From Thermoplasmata archaeon (GTDB lineage Archaea; Thermoplasmatota; SW-10-69-26; JACQPN01; JAJPHT01), in contig JAXDQU010000025.1 of assembly GCA_034667685.1 (NCBI GenBank), forward strand, positions 1 to 64,000: a stretch of DNA of 64,000 bases, written 5' to 3'. A program made the translations under genes and the position numbers. The notes beneath the pieces were generated by a model. The model saw only the letters and a list, made by a program, of their open reading frames with translations. It was not told where the DNA came from and did no database searches. This document shows positions 5,711-45,078 of this stretch, one piece after another; position 1 is the stretch's first letter, and each line of letters begins with the position of its first letter.

Positions 5711-5767
5711 CAGCCGCGGGGAGGGGGCATCGGCTTTTAAGGGTTCTACCCTCGCGACAACCTGTCT

Positions 5768-25929: not shown

Positions 25930-26565
25930 CTAGCCGCGCCGGCGCAGGACGATCGCGCCCAGGACCGCGAGCACGCCCAGCGTGAGCGCGACCTCGAAGC
26001 CGGGCACGCCCTTGGCCGGCGTGGCGGAGGGCTGCACCGTCGCGGGCGTGGAGGCCTGCGTGGCGAGCTTGGCCTGGAGCGCCTGCACCTGCGACTCCAG
26101 CACGGCGATGCGCGCGTCCTGGTCCGCGGGCGAGCTCGCCTTGGGGAAGAACGAGTCCTTCAGCTCGTGCACGTCCTCCTTGGGCGGGATCGTGACGTCC
26201 ACGGCGCTGCCGTTGATCGAGCCGGTCAGGTGCAGCTTGTACGTGCCCGGCGCGGTGGGCGTGACGGTGCCGGTGTAGTAGCCGGGCTTGCCGAACTGGC
26301 CGCCGAAGTCCGAGAACGTGAACGTCTGGTTGGTGTAGGTGAGCGAGGCCGTGAGGTTCGATTCCAGGCCGGGCAGCAGCGCGCCGGTGGCGTTGTCGAA
26401 GACGCGCAGGTCGAGGCCGTTCTTGGTGTACGTGGAGGAGGGCTCGTTGAGGAAGCCGTAGACGAACTTCCATTTGTTGTCCGACGAGTAGGCCGTCATG
26501 TGGGCCGAGGCGACGGGCAGGAGCGCGAGCGTGGCGAGGATGGTCAGGATGGCGAACGTTCTCAT
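25930..26565 (-). CDS. surface protein with PGF-CTERM archaeosortase signal
   Basis: signal peptide ending ASA|H; C-terminal VPGFE + TM + RRRG. Confidence 0.85.
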   Translation of the reverse strand: MRTFAILTILATLALLPVASAHMTAYSSDNKWKFVYGFLNEPSSTYTKNGLDLRVFDNATGALLPGLESNLTASLTYTNQTFTFSDFGGQFGKPGYYTGTVTPTAPGTYKLHLTGSINGSAVDVTIPPKEDVHELKDSFFPKASSPADQDARIAVLESQVQALQAKLATQASTPATVQPSATPAKGVPGFEVALTLGVLAVLGAIVLRRRG

Positions 26566-27681: not shown

Positions 27682-27930
27682 TCAGGCGTTGAGGAGCACC
27701 GAGCACTCGACATGCAGCGGCGCGGCCTCGCCGTACTTCGGCGTGCACGCGTAGAGCGTGATCGGGTACGCGCCGCACTCCGCGCCGGAGCGGACGGTGG
27801 CGATCTCGATGGGGCCGACGCCGTACGTCGTCGACTGGCAGAGGGGCGGCATCGCGCCGGCGGACGGAACGAACGACGCGACGCCGGCGAGCGCGAGCAG
27901 GGCCACGAGGGCCAGGGGGGAGATGTTCAT
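27682..27930 (-). CDS. small secreted 4-Cys protein
   Basis: signal peptide; GGAGG SD upstream. Confidence 0.65.
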   Translation of the reverse strand: MNISPLALVALLALAGVASFVPSAGAMPPLCQSTTYGVGPIEIATVRSGAECGAYPITLYACTPKYGEAAPLHVECSVLLNA

Positions 27931-28044
27931 GGTGTGCCTCCGGCGGTCCGGACGCGGGCGCGCCGACATAAGCGGAGCGACCCCGCACCCCCGCGGCGCC
28001 GCCGTCGGAACCATGATCCGCGCGCCTCCCGTTCTGCGCCGCGC

Positions 28045-28149
28045 ATGAACGACGTCCCCCTCTCCATGCGCTGGGCCGAGCAGCCGAAGCAGCCCCTCCC
28101 GGGCCTGTCCAACTTCATGGACGACGTCTACCTGATGCACACCAACTAG
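28045..28149 (+). CDS. putative graspetide (ATP-grasp RiPP) precursor, 34 aa
   Basis: MNDVPLSMRWAEQPKQPLPGLSNFMDDVYLMHTN ends 37 nt before the ATP-grasp ligase. Confidence 0.7.
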   Translation: MNDVPLSMRWAEQPKQPLPGLSNFMDDVYLMHTN

Positions 28150-28186
28150 GACAGGTCCGGGCGCGCCGCGCCCGATCCTTCTTCTC

Positions 28187-29188
28187 ATGACCGCGATCGT
28201 CTTCACCCTGGAGCGCGACCCGTACTCGCGCCGGATGATCGAGGCGCTGCGCGCCCGCGGCATCCCCACGCTCGGCTTCGACCTCGCCGACCCTTCGCGC
28301 AACGGCCTCACGCTGGAGGTCGACGGGGACCGCGCCACGGGCACGATCCGCACGCCCGCGGGCGCCGTCGACCTCGCCGAGGCGCGCGCCTTCGTCAACC
28401 ATTTCCTCGTGGTGCGGCCGCCCCCCGTCGCCGAGCACGCGCGCCGCTTCGCGACGGAGGAATGGTTCTCCGCGCTCGTCGCGCTGCATCAGCTCACGCG
28501 CGACCGCCTCTGGGTCAACCCGCTCGACGCGTACCTGCTGGGCGAGTCGAAGCTCTTCCAGCTCCAGGTCGCGGCGCGCGCCGGCCTCGCCACGCCCCGC
28601 TCGCTGGTGTCGAACGAGCGCGCGCCCATCGAGGCGTTCGCCAAGGCGCACCCGGAGGGGCTCGCCGTGAAGCGCGTGAGCCACCCGTTCCCGCGCCTGG
28701 GCGAGGGCGCCGCGCACGAGTGGGTCCTCTACACGCACCGCGTCGCGCCCGAGGAGCTTCGCGGCGAGGCGCTGGCGCAGGCCCACCTCGCGCCGCTGGC
28801 CGCGCAGGCGTACGTCGAGAAGGCGACCGAGGTGCGCGCGTACGTCGTGGGCGAGGCGGTGCTCGCGTGCGAGATCCTCTCGCAGGAGGACGAGCAGACG
28901 CGCGACGACTGGCGCCGCTTCCCGCGCCGCGAGGGCGGAGGGCTCGACGAGGCGCGCTGGCGCTGCCGCCCCTACGCGCTCCCCGGCGCGGTGGCCGCGC
29001 GCCTCCGGGACGCCACGCGCGCGATGGGGCTGCGCTACGCCGCGGCCGACCTGATTGTAACGCCACAGGGCGAGCACGTCTTCCTGGAGGCGAACGGGAT
29101 GGGCGCGTTCGGCTTCGCCGAGGACCTCGCGGGACTGCGCGTCTCGGAGGCGTTCGCCGACCTCGTGGCCGCGTCGCTGGGCCTCTGA
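28187..29188 (+). CDS. ATP-grasp ribosomal peptide maturase (MvdC/MvdD-like)
   Basis: WVNP...SKLFQLQVA...PRSLVSN, QAYVEK..EVRAYVVG, DWRR, YAAAD, FLEAN. Confidence 0.85.
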   Translation: MTAIVFTLERDPYSRRMIEALRARGIPTLGFDLADPSRNGLTLEVDGDRATGTIRTPAGAVDLAEARAFVNHFLVVRPPPVAEHARRFATEEWFSALVALHQLTRDRLWVNPLDAYLLGESKLFQLQVAARAGLATPRSLVSNERAPIEAFAKAHPEGLAVKRVSHPFPRLGEGAAHEWVLYTHRVAPEELRGEALAQAHLAPLAAQAYVEKATEVRAYVVGEAVLACEILSQEDEQTRDDWRRFPRREGGGLDEARWRCRPYALPGAVAARLRDATRAMGLRYAAADLIVTPQGEHVFLEANGMGAFGFAEDLAGLRVSEAFADLVAASLGL

Positions 29189-29275
29189 TCCGCGCCTGGG
29201 ATCTCCGGAGCCGCTGCCCGCCTGCCCGCCACGCCTAGCGGCCAGCTTCAAACGTTCCTCGCGCGACTGGATGCC

Positions 29276-30163
29276 GTGGCGACACTCTCCGTGCGGGACC
29301 TCGAGGTCGCCTACGGCGCCAAGGAGGTGCTGCGCGGCGTCAGCTTCGAGGCGCGGCCCGGCGACATCCTCGCGATCATCGGCCCCTCGGGCTGCGGCAA
29401 GACGACGCTCTTCCGCGCGATCCTCGGCGAGGTCGAGCCCCAGCGCGGCGTCATCGCGATCGATGAGAACGACGTGACGCGCGCGCGGCCCGAGGCGCGC
29501 GGCGTGGGCATCGTCTACCAGAGCTACGCGCTCTTCCCGCACCTCACCGTCGCGGAGAACGTCGCGTACGGGCTGCGCGTGCGCCGGCGCAAGCGCGCGG
29601 ACGTGGAGAAGCGCGTCGCGGAGATGCTCGACCTCGTGCAGCTCGCGGGGCGCGGCCACGAGCCCGTCGAGAAGCTCAGCGGCGGCGAGAAGCAGCGCGT
29701 CGCGCTCGCCCGCGCGCTGGCCGTCGAGCCGCGCATCCTGCTTCTCGACGAGGCGTTCACGGCGCTGGACGCCTCCACGCGCGGCGAGGTCGTGCAGGAG
29801 GTGCGCGCGATCATCAAGCGCCTCCGCGTCACGACGCTGCTCATCACGCACGACCAGGAGGAGGCGTTCCTCTTCGCGCGGCACGTGCTGGTGCTCAACG
29901 AGGGAAAGGTCGTGACGCTCGACGATCCCGAGCGCGTCATGACGCACCCGCACCCGTTCGTGCAGGACTTCGTCAAGATGTGCGTCTTCCACCAGGCGAA
30001 GGTGGAGACGGACCGCGACGGCCAGGCGTACGTGATCACGGAGGGCGGCGCGCAGATCCCGATCAACATCCCCGGCGTGAGCGCGGGCGACGTCGTCCAC
30101 GTCATGGTGAAGAAGGGCGCGAGCCGCGAGACGATCGAGGTGTGGCCCCGCGATGAAGGCTAG
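29276..30163 (+). CDS. ABC importer ATPase (Fe3+/polyamine/oxyanion class)
   Basis: GPSGCGKT, QSYALFPHL, LSGGEKQR, LLLDE, THDQEEA. Confidence 0.92.
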   Translation: MATLSVRDLEVAYGAKEVLRGVSFEARPGDILAIIGPSGCGKTTLFRAILGEVEPQRGVIAIDENDVTRARPEARGVGIVYQSYALFPHLTVAENVAYGLRVRRRKRADVEKRVAEMLDLVQLAGRGHEPVEKLSGGEKQRVALARALAVEPRILLLDEAFTALDASTRGEVVQEVRAIIKRLRVTTLLITHDQEEAFLFARHVLVLNEGKVVTLDDPERVMTHPHPFVQDFVKMCVFHQAKVETDRDGQAYVITEGGAQIPINIPGVSAGDVVHVMVKKGASRETIEVWPRDEG

Positions 30164-31130
30164 CGCCTCCGCGATCCTGCTCGTCGTCCTCGCCGTGGGC
30201 GCCGTCGCCGCCGCGGCCGACCTGCATCGCGTCCAGGCCCAGACGCTCGTCGTCTACACGACCCCCGCGCTCAAGGACGTGCTGGAGAAGGATATCATCC
30301 CGCGCTACGAGCAGGCCACCGGCGAGCGCGTCGATCCGGTGTACGTGCCGGCGGGCGAGCAGTACAACCGCCTGCGCATGGGCGGCGACCGCCCCGAGGC
30401 CGACGTGTTCCTCCACGCCAGCCCGCTCTACCTGGAGCAGGGAAGCCACGAGGGTTACTTCGACGCGTGGAGCCTGCCCGAGGGCGCGCAGATCAACGCG
30501 ACGTACCGGAGCGACGATCCGGGCGCGACGTGGTACGCCTTCGCGTGGAGCCCGCTCGTGGAGGTCTACGGCCCCCGGCTGGGCGCGGCGCCCGACCTCG
30601 CCACGGCGGAGCTGAAGTTCGGCCTCGCGCACCCGCTGCTCTCGAACAACGGCATCTACAACGTCATCTACTACGAGCAGGTCAGCCCCGAGGCGGGCCG
30701 GCACGCGCTCGCGCGCACCACCGTGCAGCCCACCAACTCGCGCGCCACGATCGACGGCGTCGCGGACGGGAGCTTCGACGTCACGCTGGGCTACGAGGCC
30801 GTCGCGCTCCTCTACGAGGGCAAGGGCGCGCGCGTCGAGCACGACCTCCCGCTCCTCGCGGGCAACCGCAGCCTCGTCCCCGTGCTCTTCGTCGGGGGCC
30901 TCGTGCACGGCCACCCGCACGCCGACGCCGAGCGCTTCCTCCAGTTCCTCTTCACGAACCAGACGCAGGGCCACCTCGCGAAATATTTCCTGAGGCCGAC
31001 GCTTCCGGGCGCCAAGCCGCTCGCGAGCGGCCTCGACGCGCAGATGGCCGGCCTCGCGCCCATCACGTACGACTGGACGCGCTGGCAGGAGCTCGAAGCG
31101 AAGCTCCCCACCTACCGGGTGAAGACATGA
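30153..31130 (+). CDS. ABC substrate-binding protein
   Basis: signal peptide; TLVVYT, PEADVF, AERFLQFL. Confidence 0.8.
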   Translation: MKASASAILLVVLAVGAVAAAADLHRVQAQTLVVYTTPALKDVLEKDIIPRYEQATGERVDPVYVPAGEQYNRLRMGGDRPEADVFLHASPLYLEQGSHEGYFDAWSLPEGAQINATYRSDDPGATWYAFAWSPLVEVYGPRLGAAPDLATAELKFGLAHPLLSNNGIYNVIYYEQVSPEAGRHALARTTVQPTNSRATIDGVADGSFDVTLGYEAVALLYEGKGARVEHDLPLLAGNRSLVPVLFVGGLVHGHPHADAERFLQFLFTNQTQGHLAKYFLRPTLPGAKPLASGLDAQMAGLAPITYDWTRWQELEAKLPTYRVKT

Positions 31131-32017
31131 CGACCCTTCCCGCCCACGAGCGCCGCGCCCACGCCACCCGCACGCTGGAGAAGTCCGCCTGGACCGTCCT
31201 GGTCTGGGCGCTCTTCGCCCTCTTCATCCTGGGGCCCCTGCTGACCGTGGTCGCGTTCAGCCTCACGCACAACGTCTTCCAGGGCGCGCGCCCCAACAGC
31301 CTGGAATGGTACGCGCAGCTCCTGCGCGACCCGCAGCTCTACGGCCCGCTCCTGCGCAGCTTCGAGGTCGCGCTCATCGTCGTGATGGTGCAGCTCGTCT
31401 TCGGCACGCTCATCGCCTACAGCACCGTGCGCGGCCGCATCTTCGGCGCCGGGTTCCTCGACGCGCTCTGCAACATCACCATCGCGCTGCCCAGCGTCGT
31501 CATCGGCCTGGCGCTCCTGGCCTTCTACGGCCCCTTCGGCCCGGTGAGCACGTTCTCGACGTGGGTCACCGGCAGCCCCTTCACGCTGACGTGGACGCTC
31601 GCCATCGTCGTCTTCGCGCACGTCCTCGAGACGTTCCCCTACATGGTGCGCAGCGTCACGCAAGGCCTCCAGCGCATGGACGCCAACCTGGAGAGCGCCG
31701 CGCGCAGCCTCGGGGGCAAGCCCTGGCACGTCTTCCGCACCATCACGCTCCCCCAGCTGCGGCCCGCGCTCGTAAGCGGGGGCGTGCTCGTCCTCTCGCG
31801 CAGCATCGCCGAGTTCGGCGCCACCATCATCGTCGTGAGCGCCGTCCTCTCCACGGCGCCGGTGAGCATCTACAGCGCGGCGGAGAGCGGCAGCATGGAA
31901 TTGGCCGCGGCTTACAGCGTGATCCTCATGCTCGTGAGCTTCACCGCGTACGTCATCATGAACCGGTGGCTGCTGCGCGAGGAGAACGCTCGGGGACGCG
32001 CGGAGGGCGCGCCCTGA
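31127..32017 (+). CDS. ABC permease
   Basis: LPSVVIGL, LESAARSLG (EAA loop), SIAEFGA. Confidence 0.9.
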   Translation: MTTLPAHERRAHATRTLEKSAWTVLVWALFALFILGPLLTVVAFSLTHNVFQGARPNSLEWYAQLLRDPQLYGPLLRSFEVALIVVMVQLVFGTLIAYSTVRGRIFGAGFLDALCNITIALPSVVIGLALLAFYGPFGPVSTFSTWVTGSPFTLTWTLAIVVFAHVLETFPYMVRSVTQGLQRMDANLESAARSLGGKPWHVFRTITLPQLRPALVSGGVLVLSRSIAEFGATIIVVSAVLSTAPVSIYSAAESGSMELAAAYSVILMLVSFTAYVIMNRWLLREENARGRAEGAP

Positions 32018-32056: not shown

Positions 32057-32962
32057 GTGGACGCGGTCCTGGAAGCGCGCGGCCTGACGAAGCGTTACGG
32101 GACGCTCACGGCCGTCGACGGGCTCACCTTCGCGCTGCCCCGGAGCGGCGTCATCGGCTTCGTGGGACCCAACGGCGCGGGCAAGACGACGACGATCCGG
32201 ATGCTCATGGGGCTGATCCGGCCCACGGGCGGCGAGGCATCCGTGCTGGGCGCCTCCGTGCGCCGGCCGCAGGACTACCTGCCGCGCGTGGGCGCGCTCA
32301 TCGAGTCGCCCGCGTTCTACCCGCAGCTCTCGGGGCGGCGCAACCTGCGCGCGCTCGCCATGCTCGGCGGGCAGGACCTCGCGCGCGTGGAGACGCTGCT
32401 CGCGCAGGTCGGCCTCGCGCAGCGCGGCGACGACGCCTACGGCTCCTACTCGCTGGGCATGAAGCAGCGCCTCGGCATCGCGGCCGCGCTCCTCCCCGAC
32501 CCGGAGTTGCTGATCCTCGACGAGCCCACCAACGGCCTCGACCCGGCGGGCATCCGCGAGATCCGCACGCTCCTGCGCAGCCTGGGCGACGCGGGCAAGA
32601 CGGTCTTCGTGTCGAGCCACCTGCTCGCGGAGATCCAGCGCATGTGCGACCGGCTGCTGATCCTGCGCACGGGCAAGATCATCTTCGACGGCACGGTGGA
32701 GGCGCTGCTCGCGCGCCAGGTGGGGCTCGTCGCGGCGTGCGACGACGCGGCCCGCACGCGGGACCTCATCGCGCTCTGCGAGGCCGCGGGCTACGCCGCC
32801 GAGCCGCAGGGCGACGCCGTGCTCGTGCGCGCGCCCAAGACCTGGGCCGGCACGCTCAACGCCTCCGCCATGCAGGCCGGCATCGTGCTGCGCGAGCTGC
32901 GCCCGCAGGCCGGCGACCTGGAGGAGACCGTGCTCACCATGACCGGCCAGGGAGGGCTCTAG
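32057..32962 (+). CDS. ABC-2 type exporter ATPase
   Basis: GPNGAGKTT, YSLGMKQR, LDEPTNGLD, SSHLL. Confidence 0.92.
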   Translation: MDAVLEARGLTKRYGTLTAVDGLTFALPRSGVIGFVGPNGAGKTTTIRMLMGLIRPTGGEASVLGASVRRPQDYLPRVGALIESPAFYPQLSGRRNLRALAMLGGQDLARVETLLAQVGLAQRGDDAYGSYSLGMKQRLGIAAALLPDPELLILDEPTNGLDPAGIREIRTLLRSLGDAGKTVFVSSHLLAEIQRMCDRLLILRTGKIIFDGTVEALLARQVGLVAACDDAARTRDLIALCEAAGYAAEPQGDAVLVRAPKTWAGTLNASAMQAGIVLRELRPQAGDLEETVLTMTGQGGL

Positions 32963-32963
32963 G

Positions 32964-33767
32964 ATGCTGCGCGCCTTCCGCGCCGAGTGGTACAAGCTCT
33001 GGCGCCGCGGCATGGTGCTCGGCGGCCTGGGCACGATGGTCGGCATCGCGCTCCTCGTGGTCATCCTCGTCTTCGCCAACGCGCAGGCCACGCCGCCGCC
33101 CGCGTCCGCGAACCCCAACGAGCGGCCGCTGCCCACGTTCGCCGCGCTCGCCGCGCAGAACGGCATGGTGCTCCCCTTCGGCTTCGCGGGCGGCCTGCTG
33201 GGCCTCATCGCGCTCGTCCTCTTCGCGCAGTCGCTGGGCAGCGAGTACCGCGACGGCACGCTGAAGGTCCTGCTATCACGCGAGCCGCGTCGCCTCCGCC
33301 TCCTGGCGGGCAAGCTCGCCGCGCTCGCGTGCTTCGTCCTCGTGGGCGTGACGCTTGCGTTCCTCCTGCAGAGCATCGCCGCGTTCCTCATGGCCGGCGT
33401 GCGCGGCATCTCCACCGCGTCGTGGACCACGTGGGACGCCATGCAGGTCGAGGGCGGCGTCCTCTGGCGCACCTGCGCCGCGACCCTCGCGCACGGCCTC
33501 CTGGGCGCGGCGCTCGCCATCCTCCTGCGCGCCGCCGCGCCCGCCATCGGCGTCGGGATCGGCTACACGCTCCTGGGCGAGCCGCTGATCCTCCTCGTCT
33601 GGCGCGACGGGCGCAAGTGGCTCCCCGAGCAGGTCTTCAGCGCCTTCGCCGCGGGCGGCAACGCCGCGCTATCGTTCGGCGCGGCGAGCCTGCTCGCCAC
33701 GATCTACGCGGCGGCGCTGCTGGCCGCGCAAGGCGGCGTGTTCTGGCGGCGCGACGTCACGACGTGA
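32964..33767 (+). CDS. ABC-2 type exporter permease
   Basis: RAEWYKL, GSEYRDGT; about 6 TM segments. Confidence 0.85.
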   Translation: MLRAFRAEWYKLWRRGMVLGGLGTMVGIALLVVILVFANAQATPPPASANPNERPLPTFAALAAQNGMVLPFGFAGGLLGLIALVLFAQSLGSEYRDGTLKVLLSREPRRLRLLAGKLAALACFVLVGVTLAFLLQSIAAFLMAGVRGISTASWTTWDAMQVEGGVLWRTCAATLAHGLLGAALAILLRAAAPAIGVGIGYTLLGEPLILLVWRDGRKWLPEQVFSAFAAGGNAALSFGAASLLATIYAAALLAAQGGVFWRRDVTT

Positions 33768-35403: not shown

Positions 35404-35476
35404 GGGCCGATCGTTCAGGGGTTAGGACGTCGCTCTTACAAGGCGAATGTCGCAGGTTCGAATCCTGCTCGGCCCA
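35404..35476 (+). tRNA. tRNA-Val(TAC), integration target
   Basis: GGGCCGA..TCGCT CT TAC AA GGCGA..GCAGGTTCGAATCCTGC TCGGCCC A. Confidence 0.95.
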
Positions 35477-35532
35477 CTTTCCGCGGCCACGAGGGATTTC
35501 GGCAATAGGCTTCTGTCCAAGCTTCCTTCGTG

Positions 35533-36471
35533 TCATTCTTCATCCTCTCCTTCGAGCGTGAACGGGTCCTTCCCCGGCCTCTTCTGCATGGCCTTGTCCA
35601 TGTCCTCGGGGTGGACCTCGGCGTAGATTTCGGTGCTCTTCACCGACGTGTGGCCCAGGTACGTGCGGACGTAGAGCAGGCTCCATCCCAGGCGGACCAG
35701 GTGGGTCGCGCGCGTGTGGCGCAGCACGTTGAAATTGACCTTGACGCCCACGGCCTCGCCGACGCGGTACAGGCAGACGCGCAGGTAGTCCGACGTCACC
35801 CGGCGGGCCGGCGCGGCGCCCGGCGCGTAGCCGCCGTTCCCGCTCTTGTGCGTCGTCGTCCAGAGAGCATCCGATTCCCCCTCGGGAACCGGCCGCACCT
35901 TGAGCCACGCCGCGAGCGGGCGCTTCGGGCTCCAGACCCACCGCTCCACCGGCAGCCAGCGCTTCAGGCCGCCCTTGGCCGGCTTCGCGATCCGGATACG
36001 CGACCGCTTCGGATCGAGGTCGCTCAAGGTCATGGCCGCGACCTCGCTGGCGCGCGCGCCCGTCACGTAGGCCACGAGCAAGAGAGCACGATGCATCTTC
36101 TCGGCCTCGGGGCTCGCGCACCTGTACCCGAAGAGCTTCCAGATCGCGTCCCGCGAAAGCGTTCGGAGCTGCGCGCGCGGCTCCTTGTGCGCCTTGAAGT
36201 GGACCTCCCGATGGAGCTTCCGCCACCGCAAGAGCGCGTTGAGCGCCTTCACGTCGTTGTTGTACGAGAACACCGTCGAGCGAGGCTCCACGCGACGCTT
36301 CGCCAAGTACGCCCGCCCCTCGCGCTCCGCGTCCGCCGCGCCCTTGACGAACACCGCGAGGTCAAGCCCGTGGACGCGGCGCGCCCGCTCCAGGCGCCGC
36401 AGCATGCGATCCACCGTGATGGGGCGCTTCCCCTCGTCCACGAGCAGGAACGTCCGGAACTCCTCGATCAC
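35533..36471 (-). CDS. tyrosine recombinase / integrase
   Basis: TGARASE, KPAKGG, NVLRHTRAT, LGH..STEIY; start could be further upstream (36564). Confidence 0.9.
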   Translation of the reverse strand: MIEEFRTFLLVDEGKRPITVDRMLRRLERARRVHGLDLAVFVKGAADAEREGRAYLAKRRVEPRSTVFSYNNDVKALNALLRWRKLHREVHFKAHKEPRAQLRTLSRDAIWKLFGYRCASPEAEKMHRALLLVAYVTGARASEVAAMTLSDLDPKRSRIRIAKPAKGGLKRWLPVERWVWSPKRPLAAWLKVRPVPEGESDALWTTTHKSGNGGYAPGAAPARRVTSDYLRVCLYRVGEAVGVKVNFNVLRHTRATHLVRLGWSLLYVRTYLGHTSVKSTEIYAEVHPEDMDKAMQKRPGKDPFTLEGEDEE

Positions 36472-36645
36472 ACGAGCCCGCGCGCCACCGAAGGCGCCCC
36501 GGACCCCTCCTACGCGACCTGCACACCCAAGATGCGCAGGCCGACATCGGCGCGCGCCATGCACAAGGCGTGCGCGCGCCCGCCGCTCCCGAACGCAGCC
36601 GTGTGCATCCGGACGCGGAGACCACAGAACACGCAGCCCAGGCGC

Positions 36646-37068
36646 CTACGCCTCCTGCGCCTTCGCGCCCGGCATCGGGATCAAGCCCGCGTCGAAGTAG
36701 CGGATGAACTGGTCCGCCCGCGGGCGCAGCAGCACCGGCACGTCGCCCAGGTTGTCCGCGCCGAACGCCTCGGCCATCGGACAGTTCGTCCACGAGTGGC
36801 ACTCCCACGTCTTGGGCGTCGCGATCTCCGCGACCGGCCGCCCGCCCGCACAGAGCAGCGCCGGCACGACCTCCCCGACGTACGCCTTCCACGTCTCGCC
36901 CGTCTCGATCACCGTCTCATCCGAGAGCTTCGCGCCGCGGAGGTTCGCGCCGTAGAGGTTCGCGCGGGCGCCTTCGGCGCCCCCGCTCTCGACCCACTTC
37001 TTGTGCGCGCTTAGAATGCTCTTCAGCTCGTCTGCCGTCGGGACCGTCACCAAATCTTTCCCCTCCAT
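36646..37068 (-). CDS. short pentapeptide-repeat protein
   Basis: ILSAHKKW..GARANLYGANLRGAKL, then CHSWTNCPMAEAF. Confidence 0.75.
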   Translation of the reverse strand: MEGKDLVTVPTADELKSILSAHKKWVESGGAEGARANLYGANLRGAKLSDETVIETGETWKAYVGEVVPALLCAGGRPVAEIATPKTWECHSWTNCPMAEAFGADNLGDVPVLLRPRADQFIRYFDAGLIPMPGAKAQEA

Positions 37069-37696
37069 GGGGAAGAGCCCCGCGCACCACCGAAGGCACG
37101 CGAGGCCCGACCATTCTCCACCCTTCTGGGATGCGTTCAAGCCCGCCCGAGGGGCACTACGATTGGAGGTTGGGATGCGTCTGGCTGCAACGCCCCCGGC
37201 CAGGCGGATGATAACTAACCGTAGGATGGGCCAAACGCGCGACGATCGCACGCCGCGCATTGCCCGCTCGTCGCCGAGATCGGCGCTTCGGCCCCACAGC
37301 CCGCGCACCGGGCCGGATCGTACCTCGACGCCGGCACGAACCCCACATGACGCCCCACCGCCGGCTGAGCACGCGCCTGCGAACGCACGCTCACGGCACG
37401 CCCTCCCCGAGCCCGCGCAACATCGCGCTCATGGCAGCCCCGAACTCCTCCCCCGCCCGCGTCAGCGCCTCGACCGCGCGCGCCCGCTCCTCATCGCCCC
37501 CGTCGCGCGTGCGGTACACGCGCACGGCCTCAATCCGCAGCATCGACTCGGCCACGTCCACGCGCTTCGCCTCCACCGAAGGCCCCCGCGGCTTCGGCCC
37601 CTCCAGCTCCGCGAACACCTCCGACGCCCGCGCCGCCGGCACCTACGCCACCTCCCGCTGCGCGGGTTCAAGCTCGGTGGGCACGTGCGGGCCAAC

Positions 37697-37957
37697 ATGG
37701 AGCCCTTGCGCGTTACCTTCGTCCTCCCGCCCGCCCTCGCCGCCGAGGTCCGCGCCTTCTGCTCCGACCAGCACGTCCCCGTGGAGGTTGCCGCGGCCTT
37801 CACGCTCGTCCTTCTCGCGCGCGGGCGCCTCGGGGAAGCGCCCGCCCACACGCTCCGGCTCGCGCTCGCCCAAGCCATGAGCGAAGGACGCAACATGGAC
37901 GACCTCCTCGCCAGCGTCCGCGACGGCGGCCCCAACGCCCTCGGCCTCTACCAGTGA
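37697..37957 (+). CDS. possible RHH-like protein
   Basis: MEPLRVTFVLPPALAAEVRAFC beta-alpha pattern; overlaps minus-strand ORFs. Confidence 0.4.
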   Translation: MEPLRVTFVLPPALAAEVRAFCSDQHVPVEVAAAFTLVLLARGRLGEAPAHTLRLALAQAMSEGRNMDDLLASVRDGGPNALGLYQ

Positions 37958-38043
37958 CCGGCGCCTCGGCGCGAGCGCGTTCACGATCTCCACCGCCTCC
38001 TCCAGCGTAAGCGCCTCCGGCGCACCGCACACCCCGCACACGC

Positions 38044-38211
38044 CTACGCAGCCCCCTTCTCGGTCTGCGCCTTCTGCGCGCGCCACGCCTGACAGAACGG
38101 GAAGAGCGCCGCCCGCAGGGCTTCCGCTCTGTCCTGGTAGCGGCCCTCCAGCACCATCGCGTCGATGTCAGAGAGGTGAGGGTCGGAGACACGCACGGGA
38201 ACCGATTTCAT
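38044..38211 (-). CDS. ribbon-helix-helix (CopG/Arc-like) regulator
   Basis: MKSVPVRVSDPHLSDIDAMVLEGRYQDRAEALRAAL. Confidence 0.8.
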   Translation of the reverse strand: MKSVPVRVSDPHLSDIDAMVLEGRYQDRAEALRAALFPFCQAWRAQKAQTEKGAA

Positions 38212-38236
38212 GGTCTGTTCCAGAATGGAACAGACC
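38212..38236. promoter_or_regulatory. operator palindrome between divergent RHH genes
   Basis: GGTCTGTTCCA-GAA-TGGAACAGACC, perfect 11-bp arms; AT-rich TTAATTGTA next to it. Confidence 0.75.
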
Positions 38237-38300
38237 GTTTCAGCCTTAATTGTATCGCATTGGATCAAACCGGAACGCAACCTACCGACATCGCTAACCC

Positions 38301-38645
38301 ATGCAACGGATTGCAGCGCGCGTGCGCTCTGAGAAGGATGAGGGCTCCGAGACTGGCGCCAGCACCCCGATCCGCATCGACAACTATCAGATTGAGTGGA
38401 TGGACGACTTCGCCCGCCGCTTCAAGCTCTGGGGCGGACGCCGGGAGATCGTCCGTGCAGCCGTCCGTGAGTTTGCGATGCGCCACGACCCCAAGCTCGG
38501 GGCGCCGGAAGGCGAGACCCCGGCCTTGCCCTCGCCCAGTCCGATGGACGAGGCGGAGATGCGCTCGCGTGGTCTGCGTCAGAGCGTTGAGAAGAGGATC
38601 GAGGAGGACCGCCAAGCGGCGGCCGAGGCCGAGAAGAAGCGCTGA
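38301..38645 (+). CDS. RHH regulator with C-terminal extension (repressor candidate)
   Basis: STPIRIDNYQIEWMDDFA...RREIVRAAVREF. Confidence 0.7.
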   Translation: MQRIAARVRSEKDEGSETGASTPIRIDNYQIEWMDDFARRFKLWGGRREIVRAAVREFAMRHDPKLGAPEGETPALPSPSPMDEAEMRSRGLRQSVEKRIEEDRQAAAEAEKKR

Positions 38646-38647
38646 CC

Positions 38648-38905
38648 TCAGCAGATGTCGTACTCGATGCCCGGCGGAATCGTATTCGGGTCGATGCCGA
38701 CGCAGAGCGGGACCCAGACGCCAGCCTTCGCGTCGAACCACATGCAGAACGGGACCGTGACGGAGCCCGGCGCCATCGGCCCGCCCGAGGGCCCGATTCC
38801 GGGCGCACATGGCGGCAAGGGCGTGTCGCCTGACGGCAACGCGCGCACGGGAGCCACGGCGAACGCGAGGAACAGGGCGACGAGCACGAGGGGGAGAGCG
38901 CGCAT
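38648..38905 (-). CDS. small secreted Pro/Cys-rich protein
   Basis: signal peptide; 4 Cys. Confidence 0.6.
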   Translation of the reverse strand: MRALPLVLVALFLAFAVAPVRALPSGDTPLPPCAPGIGPSGGPMAPGSVTVPFCMWFDAKAGVWVPLCVGIDPNTIPPGIEYDIC

Positions 38906-39004
38906 CTGACCGAAGGACGACGCGGCGCAGCATCAACCCTCCTCGAACCTTTCACAATCCACCTCGACTCAGCTTGAAGCGGCGGCCACCCCTTCGCGCG
39001 CGCA

Positions 39005-40156
39005 ATGGGTTGGCGCTTGGTGGCTCTACTGGTCGCAGCGCTCCTGCTGCCCAGCGCGAGCGCCGCCCCAATCGCCACCGCCGCGCTGACCCTGCCCGCC
39101 GCAAGCACGGTCACGGGGTCGCCCCTCGCCATCTGGGCCAACAACACCAACGCCCCCAGCACATTCGAGCTTCACGTGCCTCTGCTGCACGTCCACGCCG
39201 TCCAGCGCGACTACACGCGCGCCAGCACGATCCGCGTCTACGGCCACGAGACGTTCCCCACCTTCGACCTCCACAACGCCACCGTCACGCTCGACGCCGC
39301 GCCCCCTGGAGACAGCGCCTGGATCGGCATCTACCCAGACGCCCGCGCCCACCTCGCCTTCACCCTCACCGACGCCAGCACCGTCACGGCCGCGGGCCCT
39401 GAGCGCATCGGCCGAGGCGGCACCGTCACGCCCGACGCCGACCCCTACTACCAGCGCGACCTCGACGGCCCGCACCTTGACGCGACCGGCCCCGGCGCCC
39501 TCGCCTACGCCGGCCCGGCCGTCGTCAAAATCACAGGCGGAATCGTCCGCATCCACGCCAACGAGAACGACACCACCTGGCAAACGCAACCCTACGACCA
39601 AGACCCCGCCCTCACCCACCAGGGCACCGAAGCTCACCTCGTGCTCACGTTCGACACTGGCAGCTTCACGCTCGCCACGAGCGCCCCCCTCGTCGTCGCC
39701 CTCGCAAGCGCCCACGCCACATGGACCGGCACCGCCTACGCCGGCCCCATCCCCCTCGACGCATCCGGCGCGACCCTCACCTCTGCCCTCATCGCCGGCT
39801 CGCCCGCCGCCTACCTCATTCCCGACACGCCCGGGGCCGCCACGCTCACCCAGATCGCGACCGGCGCGCCCGCCCTTGCACCCTGGGCCATCACAGGCGC
39901 CCTCGCCCTCCTCCTGGCTCTCACGCTCGGCGCCCTCGCCCGCGCACGCCGAGACCGCCTCCGCGACTCCTGGATCGTCGCCCAGGCCGCCTACGCCGCG
40001 CGCGATGACGCCCTCGCCCGCCGCGCGCTCGTGCGAGCCCTCCAGAAGGACCCTCGACTCGCGCTCGACGTCGAGGGCACCTTCCCCAGCCTCTCCACCG
40101 ACCCGCGCATCCAACGCGCCTTGGAACGCGCCTACCAACGAGATGGACGCCTATGA
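39005..40156 (+). CDS. membrane-anchored surface protein with helical cytoplasmic tail
   Basis: signal peptide, Thr/Ala-rich beta ectodomain, TM, helical tail. Confidence 0.7.
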   Translation: MGWRLVALLVAALLLPSASAAPIATAALTLPAASTVTGSPLAIWANNTNAPSTFELHVPLLHVHAVQRDYTRASTIRVYGHETFPTFDLHNATVTLDAAPPGDSAWIGIYPDARAHLAFTLTDASTVTAAGPERIGRGGTVTPDADPYYQRDLDGPHLDATGPGALAYAGPAVVKITGGIVRIHANENDTTWQTQPYDQDPALTHQGTEAHLVLTFDTGSFTLATSAPLVVALASAHATWTGTAYAGPIPLDASGATLTSALIAGSPAAYLIPDTPGAATLTQIATGAPALAPWAITGALALLLALTLGALARARRDRLRDSWIVAQAAYAARDDALARRALVRALQKDPRLALDVEGTFPSLSTDPRIQRALERAYQRDGRL

Positions 40157-40542
40157 TCGCCCGCCCCCTCCTATTCGCCGGCACACTGCTCCTCGCGCTC
40201 ATCCTCCCCTTCCCCTCGCACAACCCCCCGTCGCAGGACCCGGCTCCCGCCGCGCCTCCGTCCCCCGATGTACGCGCCGGTCGCGTGGACGCGAACTGCA
40301 ACCTCGTCTCCGGCTTCGGTTTCACCGTGTCCGCGCTCGGCCCCGGCGACTGCCTCGTGATCTGGACGCCCGCGCTCCACGCCGCGAACTACACCGTCGT
40401 CGGATACACCGAGCGCGGGCTCAACACGTTCGCCGCCGAGAGCTACACGACCAACAGCACCGAGATGGAAGCCTTCAATAGCGGTTGCGGCCACGGCTGC
40501 CCGGCTCCCTTCGCCTTCGTCATGGTCGCCCCGCCCTCCTGA
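40153..40542 (+). CDS. secreted or membrane-anchored hypothetical protein
   Basis: N-terminal hydrophobic segment; 4 Cys; start overlaps upstream stop. Confidence 0.6.
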   Translation: MIARPLLFAGTLLLALILPFPSHNPPSQDPAPAAPPSPDVRAGRVDANCNLVSGFGFTVSALGPGDCLVIWTPALHAANYTVVGYTERGLNTFAAESYTTNSTEMEAFNSGCGHGCPAPFAFVMVAPPS

Positions 40543-40545
40543 TCC

Positions 40546-41049
40546 CTACGTGGGCAGGAGGCTGCTCGGGTTGACGACGTTCACGGTGAAGTTGCTGAAC
40601 TGGCCGAGGTTGTCGCCATTGTCCTGGTCGATGTAGACCTTCCAACGACCCGAGATGCTGTTCACGCCCGTGATCGGGACGAGCACGGCGAGCAAGCCCG
40701 ACGAGCCCCCCAAGCCCGCGATCGTCGGATGCTGCGCGCCGCCCACGCCGAAGCTCGCGATGTCCGTCTTCGTCCCCGTCACGACGTCCTGGAATCCCAA
40801 GTAGAGGTGGTACGCGACGCCGCCGCCGTTGTTGCCGGCCGTCCAGTCGATCAGCATCTGCAACGTCACGATGCCTTGGAACAACGCGGAGAGCTCGCCG
40901 CTCGTGTACATGTTGGTCCGCACGCCGCCGTTCGTCACCGTCTGAATCGGCCCCGCGACCGTCAAAGCGTTGTACGTCGAGAGCCCCGTGAGCTGGTTCC
41001 CCTTCGTCGGCTTCTGCCCAAGGCTCGCGTACGTGCCGCCCTCAGCCAT
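40546..41049 (-). CDS. beta-rich putative virion (spike/vertex) protein
   Basis: last gene of the tightly coupled minus-strand operon; Gly/Thr/Asn-rich. Confidence 0.55.
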   Translation of the reverse strand: MAEGGTYASLGQKPTKGNQLTGLSTYNALTVAGPIQTVTNGGVRTNMYTSGELSALFQGIVTLQMLIDWTAGNNGGGVAYHLYLGFQDVVTGTKTDIASFGVGGAQHPTIAGLGGSSGLLAVLVPITGVNSISGRWKVYIDQDNGDNLGQFSNFTVNVVNPSSLLPT

Positions 41050-41257
41050 CCTTCCCCCCCGGCATCTGGAGGTTCAAGCAATGCGCCTGACGCACGAGCC
41101 CGTAGCCCGCCGCGATCGCCCCCGCCGCGAGCAACAAGACCGCGCCGGGCGCCACGGGCGGCAAGTGCCCATAGATCGCCTGGATGATCACGGCGACGCC
41201 CGCGCTCACCAAGGCCATCGCGCTCCAGCAAAGCGCGCTCTGCACCGTCACCATCAC
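41042..41257 (-). CDS. small two-TM protein
   Basis: two hydrophobic helices; coupled overlaps. Confidence 0.6.
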   Translation of the reverse strand: MMVTVQSALCWSAMALVSAGVAVIIQAIYGHLPPVAPGAVLLLAAGAIAAGYGLVRQAHCLNLQMPGGKDG

Positions 41258-41820
41258 GCCACCGCCGCAACGGCATGCTCAGGATGTTTGAACGCGAACA
41301 CGAGGACGGCAAGGATCACCACAACGACAAGAACCCCGACCCCCACGCCCGCGAACTTCAAGCCCGAGCCCAAGCTGTCGAGACCCGACCCGGCGCCGCC
41401 CGCGAGATTCCCAACCCCACGCCCAGCATCGGCGATGGCCTGGCCCGTCGGCTGCGTCACGTCGCGGATGATGACCGGCACCTGATGCGCCACGTCCGGA
41501 ATCACCTGGACCGTGTTCACGCCCGCCTGCCCGAGCCGATTCCCGAGGTTGCCCAACCCCGCGTACGCGCCCTTGACGCCCCCCGAGAAGTCTTTGTAGG
41601 CTTGCCCCGCGCCTCCGATCACGTCGCCCGGCACGCTCGCGACCGCCACGGCGCTCCTGTTCGCCGCCGCACCAATCGCGCCCAGGCCACTCTTGTCGTA
41701 AGCCGCCGCGAACCCGTTCCCGACCGAGCCGGCCGTGTCGTGGACCGCCTTGCCCGCGCCGCCGATGGCCGCACCGACCTTGCTCTTCGTCTCGTCCGCC
41801 AAGTCGTTCAACCAAGACAC
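41254..41820 (-). CDS. Gly/Ala-rich amphipathic protein with C-terminal TM (virion membrane/pilot-like)
   Basis: GGAGKA/GGVKGA/GRGVGN helical repeats, then a TM. Confidence 0.6.
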   Translation of the reverse strand: MSWLNDLADETKSKVGAAIGGAGKAVHDTAGSVGNGFAAAYDKSGLGAIGAAANRSAVAVASVPGDVIGGAGQAYKDFSGGVKGAYAGLGNLGNRLGQAGVNTVQVIPDVAHQVPVIIRDVTQPTGQAIADAGRGVGNLAGGAGSGLDSLGSGLKFAGVGVGVLVVVVILAVLVFAFKHPEHAVAAVA

Positions 41821-41826
41821 CCCATC

Positions 41827-42438
41827 TCACCTCCCCACAAGCCTGATTCCCTTCGGCGTCTGGCGCGGCGCGACCACGGCTCCCGCGGCGTGTGCGCTCG
41901 CAGGCGCAGCCATCGTCGCCGGAGCATGCACCGGCGCCACCGGACCAACGAACGCCCCCTCGTTCTGCTGCGCGACGTGCGCCGCCGCGACGCTCGGCGC
42001 CGGCACGAAGAACAGACCCGACGCGAGGGGCTGTGCCTTCGCAGCCGGAGCCGGCGGACCCACCGGACCGTTCAGCGGGCTGTTGGGAGGCACGTACAAC
42101 GCGCTCGGCGGGCCCGTGTAGATGCTACTCCCATTCGCCAGGTTCAGGAAACCGCTCCCGGGAGGCCCAGCCGGCGTCTGGCTCACGATGGGAGACGCCA
42201 GGTCGGCCGGCGCGAGCTGCCACGTCTGGCCCGCGTCGTACCTCACCGGCGCACCCGGCGCGGAGCTCGACTGGGCCGGCCCCGGGTCCGTCGGGTCCAT
42301 CGTCCCCGCCGCGCTCAGATCGCCACTCGCGAAGCCCGCGCTCGCCCCGCCCTGACCCCGCGAGCCGAAGATCAACCACACCACGAGCGCCACCACGCCG
42401 ATCCCCAGCAACGCCACCATCGTCGATTCACGCATCAT
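41827..42438 (-). CDS. N-terminal TM, Pro/Ala-rich protein
   Basis: VALLGIGVVALVVWLIF followed by low-complexity sequence. Confidence 0.6.
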   Translation of the reverse strand: MMRESTMVALLGIGVVALVVWLIFGSRGQGGASAGFASGDLSAAGTMDPTDPGPAQSSSAPGAPVRYDAGQTWQLAPADLASPIVSQTPAGPPGSGFLNLANGSSIYTGPPSALYVPPNSPLNGPVGPPAPAAKAQPLASGLFFVPAPSVAAAHVAQQNEGAFVGPVAPVHAPATMAAPASAHAAGAVVAPRQTPKGIRLVGR

Positions 42439-42441
42439 CCA

Positions 42442-42810
42442 TCACCCGAACGTCCACTCGTGCCAAGCACCCAGCACCAGGCCCACGGTGCCCGAGACCT
42501 CGTAGTACGCGCCCGGCGGGACGAGGAAGCTCACGCGCTCCGCGAGCACCGCCGCAATCGCGCCGAAGTTGGTCTGCAAGTCGGTGTCCACGATCGTCGC
42601 GGGCGCCGGGTTCGCATCGCAGAAGGCCGTCGTCTGCGTAGAAGCAGCCGCCCCCGTGTTCTTGCTCGTCCGCACCATAACCAGGAGCGTCCGCCCCGAG
42701 AGGTTCTGGTACACCGTCGTGAGCGCGCGCGTCCCCGCGCCGCCCGCGCTGAGGTCCCCACTGTCCGTCGGCTTGTACAAGAGCCGGCCATCCGGCATGT
42801 CTTCCGTCAT
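42442..42810 (-). CDS. beta-rich putative virion protein
   Basis: TVYQNLSGRTLLVMV...SFLVPPGAYYEV; ATGA-coupled start. Confidence 0.6.
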   Translation of the reverse strand: MTEDMPDGRLLYKPTDSGDLSAGGAGTRALTTVYQNLSGRTLLVMVRTSKNTGAAASTQTTAFCDANPAPATIVDTDLQTNFGAIAAVLAERVSFLVPPGAYYEVSGTVGLVLGAWHEWTFG

Positions 42811-43352
42811 GAGTACCTCAACTCCAGGTTGCTGATCCACGAGACGGCGCCCCCGGCGTAGGCGCCATCCGTCGTCGCGCGGATCGAAATCGTGTCGCCC
42901 GGCGCGAACGCCACGCCCGCGCCCGTCGAGTCATGCCACGTCGCCGTGTCGTCGTTGAACGCGAACACCACGAAGAGGCCCGTCGGGGCGCCGTTCTTCC
43001 AGACCGTGAGAGTCAGGTTTCCAGCCGTCGCGCCGTTCGTGTAGCGCAAGACGCTGAAGCCATTGATTGTGCCCGCGCGCCGCATCTTGGGCGCGACGAT
43101 CGTGTTGTTCGTCGAATTCGAACCCGTCGCCGGATTGTAGCTCCGCGCGTCGTTCGCGACGAACGTCTGGGTCGACACCTGACCGATGATCTGGTCGCCC
43201 GGCTGCGAGCCGATCACCGCCATCGTGCCCCGCCGCTCCGGCGGAGTCGGCGGCGCAGGCCGCAGCGTCCCCCGCTCCCAAGCGTCGAACATCGCGCCCA
43301 GCATCTCACGCTGCTCGTCCGTCACGACGAGGACATGCTCACGCGGAGGCAC
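42807..43352 (-). CDS. beta-rich putative virion protein
   Basis: GAGGAGGG SD before GTG; LTLTVWKNG...VAFAPGDTISIR. Confidence 0.6.
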   Translation of the reverse strand: MPPREHVLVVTDEQREMLGAMFDAWERGTLRPAPPTPPERRGTMAVIGSQPGDQIIGQVSTQTFVANDARSYNPATGSNSTNNTIVAPKMRRAGTINGFSVLRYTNGATAGNLTLTVWKNGAPTGLFVVFAFNDDTATWHDSTGAGVAFAPGDTISIRATTDGAYAGGAVSWISNLELRYS

Positions 43353-43740
43353 TGAGCCCACCCTCCTCGACGATCTCGACCTGCCCCGCCACCAGCGCCA
43401 CACCCGAAGGCGTCACCGTGTAGTAGCGCACCAGGCCCACGCCCGACTGCGCGTTGAACGTGACCGAATCGTTCGGCCCCACCGTGCGCGGCGTGTCCCC
43501 ATTGAACACGAACGCGAGCGTCGACCCGCTACGGTTGAAGACCCTGATCTGCGTGCGGTACGGGAACCGCACGAAGGGAAACGCCTGCGCGAAGACGCGC
43601 GCGGCCGCCGTGCCGATCGCGAGGCCCCCCGCGCCGGGGTCCCAGCGCGACTCGGGCATCTGCACTTCCGGCGGAGCGGGCGCGACCGCGCCGCGCTGCC
43701 AAGACGCGAAGGGCTGGGGGTAGGGAGAACGGACGGACAT
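43339..43740 (-). CDS. beta-rich putative capsid-associated protein (133 aa)
   Basis: QIRVFNRSGSTLAFVFNG...VGPNDSVTF alternating strands. Confidence 0.55.
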   Translation of the reverse strand: MSVRSPYPQPFASWQRGAVAPAPPEVQMPESRWDPGAGGLAIGTAAARVFAQAFPFVRFPYRTQIRVFNRSGSTLAFVFNGDTPRTVGPNDSVTFNAQSGVGLVRYYTVTPSGVALVAGQVEIVEEGGLSASA

Positions 43741-43799
43741 AGGCAAGACGCGCGCCCCCACCGAAGGAGACCACGCGCCGCGGAGGAGAGGCGCCAGCT

Positions 43800-44333
43800 C
43801 TACGTGGACGAGCTGACGAAGCGCTGGTAGCCACGCGGGCTGTAGTTGTGTCCCACGGGCGGGATCACGCGCAGCACCGGCGCGGGCACGTTCGCGACCG
43901 TCGCCGGGTTGTCGTCCAGACCCAGCGGGTTCGTCTGCGTGCCGTTCACCGTCTTCGTGACGCGATCCGCCAGCGAGATCAGCTTGTCGAGCACGCGGAC
44001 GCGGCCCGTGTAGTCGCGGAAGCAGTCCGCGACGTTGAGCTGCACCGTGAAGTTGGCCGTGACCCACGTCGCGTGCGCGGCCGAGTCCAGGTACTCCAGG
44101 TCCAGCCACTCCAGCGCGTTGCCGTGCGCCACCAGGTTGCTGGGCGTCCGCACGATGCGGTCATTCAGCGTACCCTCCGGGTTGCCCTCCACGGCATCCT
44201 GGAGCACCGCGCGCGGCGACGTCGTCGCGTCGAGGATGTTGTACGGAATGTACTCGGTCGTGGCGATGTAGTTGCCCATCGAGTCCTTCACCGCGAAACG
44301 GTACATGCCCGCCGCGATCTCCGTCTGCACCAT
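43800..44333 (-). CDS. candidate major capsid protein (177 aa)
   Basis: near the head of the structural operon; SD-like GGGTGGTGGG; soluble and beta-rich; fold not verified. Confidence 0.45.
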   Translation of the reverse strand: MVQTEIAAGMYRFAVKDSMGNYIATTEYIPYNILDATTSPRAVLQDAVEGNPEGTLNDRIVRTPSNLVAHGNALEWLDLEYLDSAAHATWVTANFTVQLNVADCFRDYTGRVRVLDKLISLADRVTKTVNGTQTNPLGLDDNPATVANVPAPVLRVIPPVGHNYSPRGYQRFVSSST

Positions 44334-44348
44334 GAGAACCCACCACCC

Positions 44349-44570: not shown

Positions 44571-44681
44571 GTTGAGGAAACCTCACCCGCCCACGGCCCC
44601 GGAGCGACGATGAGGAAGCGTTGCAAGTAGAACAGGAATCCATATCGCCGCTCCGCACGTCGCGCACGACGGGAACGCACC

Positions 44682-45076: not shown

Positions 45077-45078
45077 AC

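Follow-up and report, generated by a model that had tools for sequence, protein, structure and literature searches.

The 64,000-nucleotide stretch of archaeal DNA analysed here (the window) carries at positions 28045-29188 a short peptide gene followed by the gene of an ATP-grasp ligase. Comparisons of sequences and predicted structures suggest, with a probability that we put at about 0.72, that these two genes constitute an archaeal graspetide unit, i.e., one that makes a peptide synthesized on ribosomes and modified after translation (RiPP) with omega-ester or omega-amide linkages. The genes in question and the predicted parts of the peptide are as follows:

28045-28149, plus strand: precursor peptide gene, with ATG at 28045, 34 sense codons (MNDVPLSMRWAEQPKQPLPGLSNFMDDVYLMHTN) and the TAG stop codon at 28147-28149
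28057-28080, plus strand: predicted leader recognition stretch, residues 5-12 (PLSMRWAE), of the form P[LI][SA]MRWAE in all four peptides of the family described below
28081-28104, plus strand: variable linker rich in Pro, residues 13-20 (QPKQPLPG), in which K15 and P17 are invariant
28105-28146, plus strand: predicted core, residues 21-34 (LSNFMDDVYLMHTN), with a likewise predicted leader/core boundary
28187-29188, plus strand: graspetide-type ATP-grasp ligase of 333 amino acids (aa), assigned by NCBIfam, PDB sequence and fold matches

A preliminary description of this DNA had placed a 34-codon open reading frame (ORF) directly upstream of an MvdC/MvdD-like ATP-grasp ligase, and its coordinates for both genes proved to be exact. 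The two genes have the same orientation, and 37 nucleotides (nt) separate the stop codon of the precursor gene from the start of the ligase gene.

Among NCBIfam models, the ligase is matched best by TIGR04187 (GRASP_SAV_5884; E = 6.4e-47, 160.3 bits, residues 3-327 of 333). The MvdD and MvdC models also align with it end to end (E = 1.5e-36 and 3.2e-36, respectively; 125-126 bits), and the grasp-with-spasm maturase model matches it at E = 8.7e-18. Five of the five PDB chains that match its sequence at E ≤ 0.001 are graspetide ligases, namely, MdnC, AMdnB, MdnB, 9bou (PruB by the naming of the fold search), and CdnC. The best solved relative by sequence is MdnC (E = 5e-23, residues 2-328, about 26% identity), with which the N-terminal pre-ATP-grasp part of the ligase aligns starting at residue 2. 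An MdnB/MdnC-type ATP-grasp ligase that includes this N-terminal part, which was one of the features looked for, is present. An AlphaFold2 model of the ligase, built from an alignment of 11 sequences, three of them distant bacterial ones, has a predicted local distance difference test (pLDDT) score of 79.6 and a predicted template modelling score of 0.82, with low confidence at residues 162-181. The top matches of this model in a fold search are MdnC, AMdnB, CdnC, PruB, MdnB, and PsnB (best entries 5ig9, 7m4s, 7mgv, 9bou, 5ig8, and 7drp; E from 4e-25 to 9e-19, template modelling (TM) scores of 0.65-0.85, those of MdnC being 0.79-0.85), and ranks 1-32 are all occupied by graspetide ligases. Residues K122, Q125, K212, E215, R217, D241-W242-R243, D288, E301, and N303 are invariant in the 11 aligned ligases; we take K212, D288, and E301-x-N303 to be the nucleotide- and Mg-binding residues expected of the ATP-grasp fold. 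Judged by sequence and by the model, the enzyme, in which the nucleotide- and Mg-binding motifs are intact, is a member of the graspetide ligase superfamily and not a ligase of the RimK/LysX type.

The length of the ORF upstream of the ligase gene is by itself no more than would be expected by chance. The G+C content of the window is 71.4%, long ORFs occur in all six frames, and the frame of the precursor is open from position 27544 over 201 codons, so that the size of a 34-codon ORF is uninformative. Its composition is another matter. The G+C content at codon positions 1, 2, and 3 is 0.59, 0.32, and 1.00 in the precursor ORF, as compared to 0.82, 0.79, and 0.76 in the 34 in-frame codons just upstream of the ATG and to 0.78, 0.50, and 0.97 in the ligase gene. 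This shift at 28045 indicates that coding periodicity starts at that ATG. A second locus, L001 (JAJPHT010000050.1), carries at the equivalent site (L001 5846-5947, aligned to window 28045-28146) the sequence MNEVPLSMRWAEQPKQPLPGLSNFMDNVYLMHTS, which has its own start and stop codons and is identical to the window peptide at 31 of 34 residues. The peptide ORF is the most conserved stretch in the DNA alignment of the window and L001; the spacer 5' of it is unalignable between the two and contains an indel of about 69 nt. Three independent lines of sequence evidence, i.e., the codon-position G+C content, the L001 counterpart, and the more distant relatives described below, identify the 34-codon ORF as a real, conserved gene.

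When 1.84 billion representative proteins were searched exhaustively with HMMER for relatives of the 34-mer, four matches were obtained at E ≤ 0.001, three of which belong to the same peptide family. They are the L001-type peptide (P0021; E = 5e-15), a peptide of 35 aa (P0022; E = 1.2e-6), and a protein of 69 aa as called (P0024; E = 2.6e-4), the matching last 36 residues of which begin with Met. The fourth match (P0023), a repetitive protein of 1132 aa, was without an aligned stretch and was dropped as spurious. In the four peptides, including that of the window, 17 of 34 positions are invariant, and each peptide terminates one residue past an invariant Thr. Identities within the family reach down to 59-62%, and the replacements are conservative (L/I, S/A, V/I, H/W, and L/M). 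In a word-based protein search, in which a 40-residue in-frame reference served as the query, P0021 was the sole match in the size range of 22-70 residues, and longer proteins gave none. When the 26,772 stop-to-stop ORFs of 80 ligase loci (see below) were searched with the peptide by phmmer, only the L001 peptide was found (E = 1.8e-18), the next match having an E-value of 3.3; no relative of the peptide was detected in any of the 79 distant loci. Short ORFs in the loci of Patescibacteria, Acidobacteriota, and other neighbours in the ligase tree revealed no similar motif in an output that was noisy.

The pattern of conserved residues in the peptide family is compatible with a division into a leader and a core. 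Residues P5, M8, R9, W10, A11, and E12 are invariant in all four peptides, which bears out the earlier view of PLSMRW as a leader-like motif. The PLSMRWAE stretch corresponds in position and in chemistry (Pro, hydrophobic, Arg, aromatic) to the PFFARFL helix of microviridin; its agreement with the general leader motif 'Phhx(1,2)h', which according to PMC8939145 occurs in roughly half of the graspetide precursors, is only loose. The length of the linker differs by one residue in P0024. The core follows the pattern [LM]SNFMD[DN][VI]YLM[HW]T[NSG]. Of the side chains proposed in the preliminary description as nucleophiles and acceptors, the amine of K15, the hydroxyls of S22 and T33, and the carboxylate of D26 hold, each being invariant in four of four peptides; D27 does not, as it is replaced by Asn in three of them. 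Hence, D26 (codon 28120-28122) is the sole conserved acid of the core. A core with conserved Ser/Thr/Lys donors and an Asp/Glu acceptor, another feature that was sought, is present (S22, T33, K15, and D26).

The linkage of the precursor and ligase genes is retained in L001. Results of blastn and tblastx comparisons of L001 (13 kb) with the window indicate homology only at 27700-29190, a stretch that comprises the precursor gene, the ligase gene, and a divergently oriented gene of a protein with four Cys residues. The DNA identity of this cassette between the window and L001 is 82.5%. The precursor and ligase genes have stayed together while the flanks differ (one of one close loci), and a short precursor gene adjoining the ligase gene and kept in relatives is thus present in that locus. 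The conserved peptide that the preliminary description had proposed to look for beside a homologous ligase was found there. The window contains one copy each of the precursor and ligase genes, and no second candidate precursor or ligase in it was found. L001 is labelled 'Proteobacteria bacterium', despite the match of its cassette to an archaeal window and the presence of an HVO_0163-type helix-turn-helix (HTH) regulator gene. Possibly, the label is wrong, or, as the sequences would also allow, the cassette may have crossed domains.

Ligases closely related to that of the window are rare. Among 5.8 billion protein clusters there are eight close relatives (P0002-P0009; 50-79% identity), after which the next match falls to 36% identity. 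The ligase alignment was also used to scan 185,579 species genomes, yielding 599 pattern matches, of which 534 were confirmed and the best 80 kept. Among these best 80 of 534 loci, one, L001, is a close relative (80% ligase identity), and the other 79 are bacterial, with ligase identities of 30-42%. A tree was built of 98 ligases, i.e., those of the 80 loci and 18 database proteins, with no RimK outgroup. The fragment P0005 was left out, as was P0002, which was assumed to be a duplicate of the L001 ligase on the basis of their identities to the window ligase (79% and 80%). The ligases of the window and L001 form a clade of eight with P0003, P0004, and P0006-P0009 (Shimodaira-Hasegawa-like approximate likelihood ratio test support of 100; stem of 0.84 substitutions per site). 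The tree settles no sister group for this clade, and long-branch joins were flagged by the program. By sequence, the clade is tiny, very rare, and long-branched, and none of the other proteins found exceeds 36% identity to it. Among the best 80 loci, the full-length bacterial relatives with the best E-values are two from Burkholderiales (L012 and L039), typical microviridin clusters in which the leaders contain PFFARFL and the cores KYPSDGDD (two of the five best-E loci showing a precursor under the filter used).

Three further features of the cassette have to be considered together with the precursor and ligase genes:

27682-27930, minus strand: secreted small protein of 82 aa, a candidate member of the unit, with a signal peptide and about 56 residues containing four conserved Cys
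28009-28017, plus strand: A/T-richer box (AACCATGAT) located 28-36 nt before the ATG of the peptide; the aligned site of L001 is AACGTTATG
28158-28174, plus strand: G+C hairpin located after the precursor stop codon and before the ligase start, with CUUCUUCUC behind it (-20.2 kcal/mol, z -2.0)

The four-Cys protein is 67% identical to the product of L001 5421-5663 (minus strand), and its gene is transcribed divergently from that of the precursor. No match to it was found in Pfam, NCBIfam, or PDB, and its Atlas matches scored at most 0.77, with TM scores of about 0.5 or lower. Apart from the box at 28009-28017, the spacer in which it sits is G+C-rich and not conserved. The sequence of the box may represent an archaeal TATA-like element, in which case the mRNA would be leaderless or nearly so. 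The hairpin is followed by a pyrimidine run (CUUCUUCUC), and a hairpin at the same place in L001 (about 5961-5976) has a different stem sequence and a z of -0.65. Given these weak fold statistics, the hairpin at 28158-28174 may at most be suggested to set the ratio of precursor to ligase.

According to the mechanism that we propose, the 34-residue peptide would be the substrate of the ligase, on which its P-L-S-M-R-W-A-E stretch would dock as the PFFARFL helix of microviridin does on MdnC. The ATP-grasp enzyme would phosphorylate the side-chain carboxylate of D26, and a conserved side-chain nucleophile would then attack the acyl phosphate, which would result in one macrocycle and the loss of one water. 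A single ligase-made ring is predicted because D26 is the only conserved acid of the core. In most known graspetides the donor is N-terminal to the acceptor, and for that reason the preferred ring would be an S22-to-D26 ester in S-N-F-M-D, with a T33-D26 ester and a K15-D26 amide as possible alternatives. Leader removal, export, and activity of the product we only infer; that the product is a protease inhibitor is a default guess by analogy with the microviridins. Structure prediction of the precursor-ligase complex gave a score of 0.37 as compared to 0.00 for the best control, which is graded as weak. Of 157 solved complexes, 116 passed the mark used, as did 2 of 215 mismatched pairs; with scores of 0.60 or less, it was passed by just 18 of the 157, and the two mismatched pairs that passed were both in this band. 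Contact agreement between the runs was at least 47%, and the pLDDT of the partner was at least 47. Similar complexes have been solved (5ig9 and 7mgv), and the pass may reflect likeness to them only.

Several observations weigh against the interpretation of the locus as a graspetide unit. The ligase scores below every curated NCBIfam cut-off (160 vs. 350 bits in the case of TIGR04187) and has no Pfam match at E ≤ 0.01. The peptide matches no precursor family of Pfam or NCBIfam, and with a single conserved acid its core would be unusually poor for a graspetide. The linkage between the precursor and ligase genes is supported by only one genomic locus besides the window, and in the comparison of the window with L001 neither a protease nor a transporter is shared along with the pair. 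The motifs MRWAE, SNFMD, YLMHT, and YLMWT were not found in the supplements of PMC8939145 and PMC13097080, of which one file each was covered in part. Finally, the synonymous sites of the peptide ORF are more conserved than those of the ligase gene: of the residues that are identical in the window and L001, 29 of 31 have the same codon in the peptide, as compared to 184 of 262 for the ligase (binomial P = 0.0017). This pattern could reflect a constraint at the RNA level, strong codon selection, or recent exchange. A search of the window with Rfam revealed only two tRNAs and no family on the peptide stretch.

The conservation of synonymous codons is one of the points that speak for another explanation of the locus, in which the small ORF is a conserved micro-protein or a regulatory upstream ORF and the ligase acts on a peptide encoded elsewhere, or on the four-Cys protein before its export. 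The hairpin behind the ORF resembles attenuator-like arrangements, the four-Cys gene is a third member of the conserved cassette, and the weak grade of the predicted peptide-ligase complex points the same way. However, the amino acid pattern of the peptide is kept down to 59-62% identity, with conservative replacements and a fixed C-terminus, and its two-part layout of leader and core is accompanied by invariance of the donor and acceptor residues. In addition, the four-Cys protein has a signal peptide and is without a leader-like motif, and the window offers no second precursor or ligase. On balance, we consider an explanation of this kind improbable. Even less credit can be given to the view that the ORF is a chance frame in G+C-rich DNA and that the conserved stretch is a non-coding element, although the frame is open over 201 codons, DNA-level conservation is very high, and the peptide of the window itself was not returned by the search of proteins of 22-70 residues (P0021 only). 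The combination of a G+C content of 1.00 at the third and 0.32 at the second codon positions from the ATG onward, the conservation of the start and stop codons in L001, the relatives at the protein level (E = 1.2e-6 and 2.6e-4 among 1.84 billion proteins), and the lack of any Rfam family over the stretch make it very hard to sustain.

A RimK/LysX-type activity, i.e., the addition of amino acids to a C-terminal carboxylate, with the peptide being a LysW-like carrier or unrelated to the reaction, could be considered because of the shared ATP-grasp fold: LysX, ArgX, and RimK occupy ranks 33-49 of the fold search (E from 3e-14 to 9e-12), and the P0005 fragment is named 'glutathione synthase/RimK-type ligase-like' by one database source. 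Whether the ligase clusters with these enzymes had been raised in the preliminary description, and our comparisons indicate that it does not. With the RimK model, the ligase attains only 29.9 bits (E = 3.5e-7; cut-off, 143.4), and this over residues 109-229 only, whereas its alignments with the graspetide models extend from one end to the other; the PDB sequence search yielded no chain of RimK or LysX at E ≤ 0.001, and the N-terminal part of the enzyme aligns with that of MdnC. The peptide, for its part, has neither a zinc ribbon nor an acidic C-terminal tail. An activity of this type is thus highly improbable. A bolder version of the graspetide interpretation would unite all three conserved genes, i.e., those of the secreted four-Cys protein, the 34-residue precursor, and the ligase, in a cassette making a minimal, single-ring archaeal graspetide of an undescribed ring type (e.g., a lactone of the five residues S-N-F-M-D, a T33-D26 ester in the reverse direction, or a lactam between K15 and D26 that extends back into the linker), with the orphan secreted protein as its functional partner (target, carrier, or immunity protein). 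This version is doubtful; if true, it would provide the first experimentally tractable archaeal graspetide, with one of the shortest known precursors. The reading that we prefer is that of a graspetide unit of two genes, the precursor and the ligase.

The genes that flank the cassette in the window differ from those that flank it in L001. In the window, a gene of an HTH regulator is located upstream, and a three-gene ATP-binding cassette (ABC) importer (29276-32017) is located downstream, followed by an ABC-2 pair at 32057-33767, which Pfam identifies as an ABC ATPase and an ABC-2 permease. In L001, the cassette is preceded by a gene of an alpha/beta hydrolase and followed by that of the HVO_0163-type regulator. 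It had been suggested in the preliminary description that the ABC-2 exporter might export the peptide. This suggestion is not borne out, as homology with L001 is confined to 27700-29190; the pair lies outside the shared stretch and the importer intervenes, so that its role as a part of the system is unsupported, albeit not disproved.

The claim that the host is an archaeon agrees with our results. The leucyl-tRNA synthetase encoded in the window (56724-59969, minus strand) reaches the archaeal equivalog model TIGR00395 with 883 bits at a cut-off of 648.5, as compared to 116 bits for the bacterial model, and the Atlas clusters closest to it are 100% archaeal (Nitrososphaerota and Thermoproteota). 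Matches of an XerA-type recombinase and of a Thermoproteota-type RNase HI, both below their cut-offs, also point to Archaea. On the basis of the archaeal-type synthetase with its Atlas clusters, the recombinase, and the RNase HI, the window is archaeal. Elsewhere in the window, a tRNA-Val gene adjoins a gene of a tyrosine integrase (35536-36645, minus strand), beyond which come about 14 kb of ORFs that match no family and then a resolvase gene (48991-49791, minus strand); the region 35404-50823 is probably an integrated mobile element. Genes of the futalosine route of menaquinone synthesis, encoding an MqnP-like prenyltransferase, a VitK2_biosynth protein, and an MqnE/MqnC-type radical S-adenosylmethionine enzyme, are located at 629-5767. 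A surface protein with a C-terminal PGF-like sorting signal and a weak Heimdall-CTERM match (E = 8e-4, below the cut-off) is encoded at 25930-26565 (minus strand), and a protein with a Ser/Thr protein kinase domain is encoded at 62432-64000 (minus strand), its gene extending past the end of the window.

Archaeal graspetide loci have been predicted before. The supplements of PMC8939145 (Makarova et al. 2022), as far as covered here, list graspetide ligases of Methanolacinia, Methanoculleus, Haloarcula, Halopiger, Methanosarcina, Nitrosopumilus, and DPANN archaea, some of them with precursors; those of Haloarcula and Methanolacinia are placed in group 7 (cluster171) and that of Halopiger in cluster4730. 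In PMC13097080 (Carter et al. 2026), 21,584 predicted graspetides are divided into 43 groups, one of which is said to be found only in 'Thermoprotea', and the table includes rows for Thermoproteota and Theionarchaea. Like the unit described here, the printed archaeal loci combine a graspetide-type ligase with a small adjacent predicted precursor, and all of them are bioinformatic predictions; their precursor sequences, as printed in the parts consulted, are unrelated to the window peptide. The shorter motifs SMRW, AMRW, RWAE, NFMD, FMDNV, and FMDDV were likewise not found in the consulted part of the precursor-alignment archive of PMC8939145. With respect to the single acceptor, the unit resembles candidate precursor clusters 281 and 1028, the cores of which, according to the same source, allow only one ester bond; the likeness to D26 here is one of description. 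Judged by titles and abstracts, no experimentally characterised archaeal graspetide was found in the literature; as far as found there, characterised graspetides are bacterial only, and the archaeal examples are entries of bioinformatic censuses.

Of the well-studied systems, that of microviridin (group 1; MdnA with MdnC and MdnB, 5ig9 and 5ig8) is the closest, as MdnC is the best relative of the window ligase both by sequence and by fold. The likeness extends to the short precursor, its N-terminal Pro-hydrophobic-x-x-Arg-aromatic stretch, and the C-terminal position of the core. However, microviridin is made with two ligases and an acetyltransferase, whereas the window unit has one ligase and no acetyltransferase; the spacer between leader and core of the window peptide, about eight residues, is also unlike that of microviridin. 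The preliminary description had called the core unlike that of microviridin, and rightly so: the TxKxPSDx(D/E)(D/E) motif, with its three acids, is absent, and the pattern SNFMD[DN][VI]YLM[HW]T includes one conserved acid. The ligase remains at 125-126 bits with the MvdC and MvdD models, the equivalog cut-offs of which are 425-475 bits. It is matched best by the SAV_5884 model of actinobacterial graspetide ligases, which we take to represent the aspartimide-bearing graspimiditide group, yet its 160.3 bits fall short of the 350 required. In contrast to that group, the window unit has no neighbouring isoaspartyl methyltransferase gene, and its peptide matches no precursor model of NCBIfam. As the scores and motifs that define the microviridin group, the SAV_5884 subfamily, and the RimK family were tested and are not attained by the unit, it falls outside all three.

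The type of the ligase, the adjacent precursor gene, the core with potential donors and an acceptor, and the conservation of the leader stretch in sequence would make the unit a member of the graspetides. To judge from these sequence features, the unit most likely belongs to a new, small group in which the ligases form a distinct clade and the precursors a new family; the kind of system is well known and has been predicted before in archaea. The very short precursor and the single conserved acceptor are unusual. The small size of the pair (34 and 333 residues), together with the single acceptor, makes it a convenient first test of archaeal vs. bacterial ligase action, and the pair bears on the question of the smallest leader and core that graspetide ligases can use. 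It adds a distinct branch to the ligase family and leaves the general picture of such systems unchanged.

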